This document shows positions 12,654-14,198 of a stretch of DNA of 64,000 nucleotides, piece by piece. Under the pieces are notes generated by a model. That model ran no database searches. It worked only from the letters and a program-made list of their open reading frames with translations, and was not told where the DNA came from. Position 1 is the stretch's first letter. Each line of letters opens with the position of its first letter. Both the position numbers and the translations under genes were made by a program. Where the stretch lies: the NCBI GenBank assembly GCA_951406725.2, contig OX597838.1, positions 43,834,001-43,898,000 of the forward strand, written 5' to 3'. This stretch comes from Octopus vulgaris. Lineage: Eukaryota.

Positions 12654-14198
12654 TTAATCAATATAGGGTGGAGAAAAAAATTTTGTAGAATTCTTTTGCC
12701 ACCAGCGGCCTAGTAGGAAAAAATTAAAATAGTCATAGACCATTTTTAAGTTCAACATCAACAATAAAGGAACGGCCATAATAGGCCATTCACCATTTTT
12801 TTCTCCACCCTATATTGATTAATTATGAATTTTCTGGTTAATTCCGTAATGGAATCGACGGCTTATATTTATTTGCTGCCGATAAATTTGGCGCGAGTGC
12901 GACGATTTGAAAATTTTAGGTCAGATATAAACTTGGCAACGTCGGAAATGCCTCGTGAAAATATCTGTTCCGTCTTGGGCTATTTCTTACTGAAGAATCT
13001 GAGGGCCTGTGGAAGATTGGCTTGATTTAATTTAATCAGGTTAGTTTACCATTAATCAGCAGATGAAACGGTATATCGTATAAGAAATTACAGGGTAAAT
13101 GTTTTTTAAATTTTCTCCTGGTTTACTGAATTAACTTTTATTTGCGGTTGAAGCTTTGGCTGTTATTTCTAGTGGGTGAATGGCCTATTATGGCCGTTCC
13201 TTTATTGTTGATGTTGAACTTAAAAATGGTCTATGACTATTTTAATTTTTTCCTACTAGGCCGCTGGTGGCAAAAGAATTCTACAAAATTTTTTTCTCCA
13301 CCCTATATTGATTAATTATGAATTTTCTGGTTAATTCCATAATGGAATCGACGGCTTATATTTATTTGCTGCCGATAAATTTGGCGCGAGTGCGACGATT
13401 TGAAAATTTTAGGTCAGATATAAACTTGGCAACGTCGGAAATGCCTCGTGAAAATATCTGTTCCGTCTTGGGCTATTTCTTACTGAAGAATCTGAGGGCC
13501 TGTGGAAGATTGGCTTGATTTAATTTAATCAGGTTAGTTTACCATTAATCAGCAGATGAAACGGTATATCGTATAAGAAATTACAGGGTAAATGTTTTTT
13601 AAATTTTCTCCTGGTTTACTGAATTAACTTTTATTTGCGGTTGAAGCTTTGGCTGTTATTTCTAGTGGGTGAATGGCCTATTATGGCCGTTCCTTTATTG
13701 TTGATGTTGAACTTAAAAATGGTCTATGACTATTTTAATTTTTTCCTACTAGGCCGCTGGTGGCAAAAGAATTCTACAAAATTTTTTTCTCCACCCTATA
13801 TTGATTAATTATGAATTTTCTGGTTAATTCCGTAATGGAATCGACGGCTTATATTTATTTGCTGCCGATAAATTTGGCGCGAGTGCGACGATTTGAAAAT
13901 TTTAGGTCAGATATAAACTTGGCAACGTCGGAAATGCCTCGTGAAAATATCTGTTCCGTCTTGGGCTATTTCTTACTGAAGAATCTGAGGGCCTGTGGAA
14001 GATTGGCTTGATTTAATTTAATCAGGTTAGTTTACCATTAATCAGCAGATGAAACGGTATATCGTATAAGAAATTACAGGGTAAATGTTTTTTAAATTTT
14101 CTCCTGGTTTACTGAATTAACTTTTATTTGCGGTTGAAGCTTTGGCTGTTATTTCTAGTGGGTGAATGGCCTATTATGGCCGTTCCTTTATTGTTGAT
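12654..14198 (+). mobile_element. Retrozyme/PLE-type array, family H2: 141 bp inverted head plus 2.85 x 493 bp near-identical tandem units, within (TA)n
   Basis: Units start at 12795, 13288 and 13781. 12654-12794 is the reverse complement of the unit junction region. Each unit has one HHR. Confidence 0.9.
12983..13087 (+). ncRNA. Type I hammerhead ribozyme with extended stem II (identical copies at 13476-13580 and 13969-14073)
   Basis: tttctta-CTGAAGA-atctg...cagat-GAAA-cggtatatcg-TA-taagaaa: 7 bp stem I, GUA triplet. Confidence 0.85.

Follow-up and report, generated by a model that had tools for sequence, protein, structure and literature searches.

The DNA analyzed here is a 64-kb stretch of the Octopus vulgaris genome (64,000 nucleotides, hereafter the window), which is repeat-rich eukaryotic DNA with LINE fragments. 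Positions 12654–14198 hold a tandem of a 493-bp unit preceded by an inverted head (Table 1). TRF delimits the tandem with a period of 493, 2.8 copies and 99% matches, and a base-by-base comparison places the beginning and the end of the periodicity exactly at 12795 and 14198, which corresponds to 2.85 units. Both analyses agree with an earlier sequence-only reading, which had described a near-identical tandem of this length with one difference at 13339. At that position, unit 2 has A and units 1 and 3 have G, i.e., a change from CG to CA (a G-to-A CpG transition). Units 1 and 3 are identical across 418 bp. The GC content of the unit is 35%. In BLAST comparisons, no second copy of the unit was found in the window, and the next matches are <40 nt with E-values of at least 0.09.

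Table 1. Coordinates of the 493-bp element, its predicted products, and other repeats in the window.
Feature	Position	Strand	Remark
(AT)n run, left part of inferred target	12386–12653		TRF, 134 copies, 98%
Inverted head, 3' end facing the left (AT)n	12654–12794	-	Exact reverse complement of 13175–13315
Partial tandem, 2.85 x 493 bp, non-coding	12795–14198	+	
Type I hammerhead, copy 1	12982–13088	+	Helix I 12982–12989/13081–13088; core 12990–12996; GAAA 13065–13068; helix III 13069–13078; predicted cut after 13080
68-nt helix II rod, copy 1	12997–13064	+	Folding prediction
Predicted 493-nt monomer 1	13081–13573	+	Prediction only
Single inter-unit difference, unit 2 only	13339	+	
Type I hammerhead, copy 2	13475–13581	+	Predicted cut after 13573
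Predicted monomer 2	13574–14066	+	Prediction only
Type I hammerhead, copy 3	13968–14074	+	Predicted cut after 14066, 132 nt before the 3' end of the insertion
8-bp GC-rich hairpin, same sequence as 13178–13199	14164–14185	+	Placed via the 493-bp period
(AT)n/(ATAC)n run, right part of inferred target	14197–14335		First two bases common with the element end
Family 2, 363-bp unit, three copies	1–589; 15101–15690; 62596–63017		Motifs at 152 (-), 416 (+), 15369 (-), 62750 (+)
Family 3, 352-bp unit, 1.46 copies	22942–23456		Canonical type I hammerhead 23252–23284
Family 3 fragments	7710–7790; 41307–41429		
LINE, 807-aa RT with zf-RVT	51475–53898	+	
Related LINE 3' fragment	20893–21636	+	
Zinc-knuckle ORF1-like region, three copies	16987–18300 (-); 24082–26049 (-); 32900–34144		

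The inverted head matches two places in the body over its full length (141/141), namely 13175–13315 and 13668–13808. It had been described as an inverted copy of the array junction; its size stands, but the "junction" is merely the arbitrary start of the array, because the head spans this start register (13288) and not the ribozyme or the cleavage site, which both lie outside it. The joint between head and body at 12794/12795 is blunt with 0 nt of microhomology, and in unit coordinates the inner end of the head lies 3 nt before the 8-bp GC-rich hairpin at 13178–13199. The outer ends correspond to unit positions 13212 (3' end of the body) and 13315 (head), an offset of 103 nt. Both are within 2 bp of a (TA)5+ run, and these adjoining runs were absent from the earlier description. 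The element is represented by one locus in the 64 kb, and a target-site duplication is unreadable within (TA)n. At 268 bp, the left AT run is the longest of the window; it is interrupted by two Gs spaced 136 bp apart and may have been duplicated or expanded during insertion. Also of note, in a transcript reading through head and body, 141 bp are predicted to pair perfectly and to leave the first ribozyme within a 380-nt loop. A-to-I editing is abundant in cephalopods, and such a duplex would be a likely substrate.

The 493-bp unit is non-coding. The longest frame of unit 1 has 68 aa and belongs to no Pfam family, and a search of 1.84 billion proteins returned no hits; coding potential was rejected based on these frame, Pfam, and protein searches. 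For the Pfam scan of the window, 205 stop-to-stop frames of at least 75 aa were collected, among which 132 passed a low-complexity filter. The 120 frames scanned comprise 117 of these 132, two long ORFs, and the 68-aa frame of the unit. Matches to RVT_1, zf-RVT, and zf-CCHC are present, and no GIY-YIG domain was found among the 120 frames. Inside the element there is no ORF with RT and GIY-YIG domains, so it does not qualify as an autonomous PLE. A bacterial promoter scan was set aside as not meaningful in this host. As RNA, the predicted 493-nt circle is 67% paired (z = -3.9; none of 60 shuffles as low), and the linear predicted monomer has a z-score of -4.27 (0/100 shuffles).

The hammerhead and its long helix II

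As claimed in the earlier reading, every unit has an intact hammerhead. All three motifs (cores at 12990, 13483, and 13976) are complete type I hammerheads with all core bases and three helices in place, in the order of an 8-bp Watson-Crick helix I, CUGAAGA, 68 nt, GAAA, helix III, and a GUA triplet. GUA is a permitted cleavage triplet, and core positions follow the usual hammerhead numbering. The 68-nt spacer is closed by a 5-bp base and encloses 58 nt, close to the roughly 60 extra nucleotides proposed before, while the hairpin noted at that time is only the tip of a longer structure. The whole of helix II is predicted to form one rod of 5 + 2 + 4 + 14 bp with internal loops and a 6-nt terminal loop, and its base pairs have probabilities of 0.86–1.0 in local folds of fragments up to 241 nt. 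When the active fold is enforced in longer fragments, helix I extends past a 4x2 internal loop, where a weak distal stem of 5 bp is added.

Helix II of the 493-bp element is atypical and unusually long, with 68 nt compared to 14 nt in the canonical motif at 23252. Judged from published consensus sequences, a long helix II has precedent in PLEs of spike mosses. PLE-X1_sMoe and PLE-X1_sTam carry type I motifs with about 54 and 48 nt (hand-counted) between the core boxes, and are flagged there as deviating from the canonical form (PMC8557442, File S2). However, these are autonomous elements, whereas the 68 nt here form one continuous predicted rod in a non-coding tandem of an animal. The descriptor used for detection has the core consensus as used in PMC8557442 and found no motif in 100 simulated 64-kb windows, on both strands and at either stringency. 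Rfam gave no match at gathering score across the 64-kb window, such that none of the hammerhead-like motifs in it was detected, and at E-values up to 10 the eight weak matches in 12600–14250 include no hammerhead. The case of this 68-nt helix II indicates that hammerhead counts based on Rfam overlook such motifs. A sequence alignment of eight motifs was discarded, as the long-helix-II motif was not meaningfully aligned.

Helix III is near-palindromic and is predicted to form a 10-bp intermolecular self-duplex (-10.2 kcal/mol). The predicted double-hammerhead fold lies 13.4 kcal/mol below two monomer folds, a figure that leaves out tether entropy, and dimer action has been published for type I motifs of animals (PMC4209133; PMC7229834). 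In ViennaRNA, the active monomer fold lies 4.3–7.0 kcal/mol above the ensemble at 37 C. The equilibrium probability of the active fold was dropped as an argument against activity, because the canonical-looking hammerhead at 23252, itself a sequence prediction, scores worse by the same method (7.85 kcal/mol above the ensemble). Two competing pairings are predicted, one between the CUG of the core and helix III, and one between the GAAA arm and a stretch 55–75 nt downstream, the latter in long transcripts and the circle (probability 0.74 at 20 C). A dedicated "anti-ribozyme" strand was rejected, with 118 of 500 shuffles being as good and the stretch not being among the 12 best of 165 windows. 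Since it is no stronger than in shuffles, the downstream helix is kept only as a predicted competing fold.

Other hammerhead elements and surrounding repeats

A relaxed motif search found further hammerhead elements in the window, which belong to two more families (Table 1). Family 2 has a minimal motif with U at core position 3, i.e., the U3-A8 variant that has been described for Schistosoma PLEs (PMC4209133); in the copy at 15369, the second of these two positions is G. All three family 2 copies have an inverted head. The copies at 15101–15690 and 62596–63017 are 88% identical and have common outer ends (unit positions 304 and 363, an offset of 59 nt), but their inner junctions differ. The inner junctions of this family overlap by 1–2 nt. 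In the third copy, the head has another end point, which lies 36 bp away from a TA run, and the body is cut off by the window edge. The head of this copy (1–589) holds a ribozyme of its own, resulting in two motifs on opposite strands. The family 3 copy at 22942–23456 has (TA)n on both sides and lacks a head. As for the family 3 fragments, the one at 7710 has lost internal sequence and its motif has a changed helix I, and the one at 41.3 kb is inverted. Across the three hammerhead families, seven of the nine alignment-defined ends are within 2 bp of a (TA)5+ run, against a background in which 1.3% of window positions are located 4 bp or less from the edge of a run; two further ends that were placed at a run by eye are excluded from this count. 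Homology among the three families was rejected, as only matches of 11–19 nt at E-values of 0.2–0.3 were found.

A solitary type I hammerhead-like motif is present at 50893–50955 (core at 50899), and its end is separated from a long downstream (AT)n run by about 20 nt. This position resembles the 3' end of Hydra-type PLEs, and no ORF was seen on the same strand in the 400 bp upstream. Among the other repeats, the zinc-knuckle ORF at 16990–18228 has two database relatives, both being Octopus sinensis proteins, with the best at 64% identity, which makes an octopus host probable. A search with a LINE fragment was uninformative in this respect, its named hits being from shrimp and cnidarians at 42–72% identity. 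Fragments of a non-LTR retrotransposon occur on the minus strand of 30075–32685 next to (TTA)n runs; they have a C-terminal motif of RHD type and presumably resemble restriction-like-endonuclease LINEs such as R4/Dong.

Class assignment and mode of insertion

The element at 12654–14198 has the sequence features of a retrozyme, i.e., a tandem with a hammerhead in at least two consecutive units, no coding capacity, GC below 50%, and a self-paired monomer. There is no internal region between repeats and therefore no LTR layout. Retrozymes in the form of type I hammerhead tandems are known from corals, mussels, and amphibians (PMC7229834), and their derivation from PLEs is put forward in a 2026 preprint (bioRxiv 10.64898/2026.07.22.740005). 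Like the non-LTR retrozymes in these two sources, the octopus element is a GC-poor non-coding tandem with one type I hammerhead per unit, a near-palindromic helix III, and a highly paired predicted monomer. Its 493 bp are slightly over the 150–450 bp given in 2020 (PMC7229834) and within the 51–972 bp of the preprint. The main texts of both papers discuss neither inverted heads nor microsatellite targets. Searches of the openly readable literature, including the main texts of both retrozyme papers, returned no description of octopus retrozymes or of inverted-head retrozymes in (TA)n. In giant squid, 235 hammerhead-1 loci have been annotated (PMC6962438). The retrozyme-like character, the young age, and the cleavage predicted after 13080 in the earlier reading hold at the sequence level. 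Searches for relatives of the unit in plasmids and phages returned no match. A gapped core pattern occurs at 15 loci in GTDB genomes (about two expected under uniform composition), none with further similarity to the unit, and these loci were treated as chance.

The insertion also carries a PLE-type signature, which consists of the inverted truncated head, the unequal outer ends, and the (TA)n target. In published PLE insertions, the tandem is partial, an inverted 5'-truncated copy often adjoins its 5' end, and a 30–40 bp tail occurs at one end only; the Naiad and Hydra clades target (TA)n (PMC8557442). The same form is found here, with a partial tandem and an inverted 5'-truncated copy beside the 5' end, and in this the element resembles the EN+ Hydra and Naiad PLEs. 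The supplement of PMC8557442 contains such elements for three Octopus species, including the (TA)n-targeting, hammerhead-bearing Hydra-1_Obim of Octopus bimaculoides and three Octopus Naiads. Moreover, O. vulgaris has 31 recently active PLE families with 336 insertions (PMC13282606). Another comparable case is Chlamys MRC1, one of the non-autonomous elements that depend on PLEs and form pLTRs as well as head-to-tail insertions of several copies. However, MRC1 is from green algae, has no canonical hammerhead, and has 3' ends in common with a known autonomous family, unlike the octopus element (PMC8557442). Based on these features, 12654–14198 is quite probably a young insertion of a non-autonomous, PLE-mobilized hammerhead retrozyme.

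Several observations speak against the PLE reading. No autonomous partner was matched, either among the 120 window frames or among published PLE sequences. In an exact search, in which line breaks can hide matches, six of seven unit motifs are absent from the Naiad, Chlamys, and Hydra consensus files, and the seventh, a 10-mer, matches close to the 5' end of Naiad_Omin in a stretch that lacks a hammerhead. By eye, the 3' ends of Octopus Naiad and Hydra elements show no likeness to the unit. The offsets between outer ends (103 nt, and 59 nt in family 2) exceed the published tail of 30–40 bp, one family 2 head departs from the recurring ends, and the 493-bp family has a single locus, too few to show that its ends recur. 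The fixed ends could also stem from microhomology with (TA)n. Compared with the Hydra and Naiad PLEs of PMC8557442, the octopus element differs in being without an ORF, a detected consensus match, or an offset of 30–40 nt. Naiads also lack canonical hammerheads. A type I hammerhead near the 3' end is, on the other hand, a feature in common with Hydra elements, at a distance of about 36, 47, and 97 nt (hand-counted) in three Hydra consensus sequences and 132 nt here. The 38 nt between the inner end of the head and the 3' end of the body were set aside as a candidate "tail" because tails occur at outer ends. As a separate observation, the 3' ends of Naiad_Obim and Naiad_Ovul (PMC8557442, by eye) have a GAAAC box and, about 25 nt further on, CUGAUGA, so that the type I order is reversed; this is possibly a permuted hammerhead behind the "half core" label of that study.

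Under the PLE-mobilization reading, a donor array elsewhere would be transcribed into a multimer, which the hammerheads, probably acting as double hammerheads via the near-palindromic helix III, can cut into 493-nt monomers to be circularized by a host ligase. The RT/GIY-YIG protein of a (TA)n-targeting PLE would nick the microsatellite and prime cDNA synthesis internally, 132 nt past the cleavage site, and this first cDNA would copy 1404 nt through three uncut ribozyme sites. A nick in the other strand would prime a second cDNA of 141 nt from AT-rich sequence located 103 nt further on in the unit. Blunt joining of the two truncated cDNA ends would then give the inverted head, with one CpG transition since insertion. 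In support of the feasibility of such steps, the enzyme of an anole PLE cleaves both strands of AT-rich DNA and initiates reverse transcription at two internal sites (PMC11167929). The single difference in 1545 bp suggests an age of about 0.2 My (95% Poisson range 0.005–1.0) when JC 0.09 is equated with 25 My (PMC13282606), which is a rough figure as CpG sites mutate faster.

The template of the first cDNA may be narrowed down by its length. Because the 3' end of the body is 132 nt past the cleavage site, a cut linear monomer could template 132 nt only. A cDNA that passed three uncut ribozyme sites points to a circle read 2.85 times or to an uncleaved multimer, and a cDNA of 1404 nt would thus require a circular template, an uncut multimer, or jumps between templates that were precise. 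The earlier reading proposed that a circle was reverse-transcribed in a rolling mode, which fits the array and is the published model for animal non-LTR retrozymes (PMC7229834), but an uncleaved multimeric transcript fits equally well. The odds between the two are about even, with the circle slightly ahead because the units are homogeneous. For the anole PLE, unprocessed RNA was the dominant substrate in vitro (PMC11167929).

Alternative explanations and significance

It is possible, if somewhat unlikely, that the insertion occurred as described but with the hammerhead as a weak or dead passenger, such that no monomers or circles formed and the template was an uncleaved multimer. This alternative qualifies the monomer, circle, and template steps and is compatible with the rest of the favored explanation. 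It agrees with the competing folds predicted for the core and the GAAA arm, with eight of nine Xenopus retrozyme dimers that remained uncleaved in vitro (bioRxiv 10.64898/2026.07.22.740005), and with the anole PLE hammerhead being protein-dependent and dispensable for insertion in vitro (PMC11167929). However, the core bases and helices are all intact here, the canonical-looking motif at 23252 has an even less favorable predicted fold, and retrozymes of coral, mussel, and axolotl do cleave and circularize (PMC7229834).

The origin of the head separates the next alternative from a second target-primed cDNA. In the earlier reading, one cDNA from rolling reverse transcription of a circle folded back and copied itself. 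Fold-back is formally possible, the head sequence being contained in the body in the 493-bp element and, as far as visible, in the family 2 copies, as this mechanism too requires; head and body are also 96–100% identical within insertions, compared with 88–96% between insertions. Nevertheless, this claim is not supported. The head is no mirror of the adjacent body, i.e., the two form no palindrome and the nearest template is 380 nt away, and the end of the first-strand cDNA is mismatched to the required priming site. In family 2, the recurring outer ends and variable inner junctions point to priming at the outer end, and inverted heads have already been described for PLEs (PMC8557442). Given the blunt junction and the lack of a self-priming match, a second target-primed cDNA accounts better for the head, and fold-back appears improbable. 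Overall, the earlier interpretation is partly supported.

The tandem could alternatively have formed after insertion of a single unit (a solo PLE terminus) by unequal crossing-over or slippage in place. Local amplification has been proposed for retrozyme tandems by Li et al. (bioRxiv 10.64898/2026.07.22.740005), long flanking (AT)n runs are unstable, and recent amplification would likewise yield near-identical units. However, it needs a direct repeat to begin with, head and body are of the same young age, and non-integer tandems ending in (TA)n, the form of PLE insertions, are present in the two other families of the window (1.3 and 1.46 units). The PLE signature in both the 493-bp element and family 2 favors tandem formation at insertion, and later amplification is decidedly improbable. 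Finally, an assembly artifact, with a repeat collapsed or expanded beside the long (AT)n runs, is very improbable: near-identical units and the 268-bp run with its two G interruptions would fit it and PLE tandem and inverted structures are known to trouble assemblies (PMC8557442), but unit 2 differs by a biologically typical CpG transition, diverged copies in the other families have the same architecture, and an artifact could alter the copy number and not create a ribozyme.

For specialists, the locus provides a useful test case for PLE-mobilized retrozymes that entails no textbook change. Previous arguments for a mobilization of retrozymes by PLEs draw on ribozymes in common, co-occurrence, and similar pLTRs (PMC7229834; bioRxiv 10.64898/2026.07.22.740005), and the insertion anatomy described here is an independent line on this question for animal retrozymes. 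The nearly unmutated copy also offers ready constructs for cleavage, circle formation, and the comparison of circle and multimer templates. A more far-reaching and quite unlikely reading is that this element is the first to be seen of a hidden retrozyme class in cephalopods, one that combines a functional helix II insert with circle-templated PLE insertion. The insert in that case might be a docking site for a protein or the RT, or an editing-sensitive switch. If true, this class would have been missed by Rfam and by descriptors that limit the spacer to 17 nt. The locus would then be a nearly unmutated record of a PLE enzyme copying a 493-nt circle 2.85 times into (TA)n, and would give direct genomic evidence on both the mover of retrozymes and the template used.
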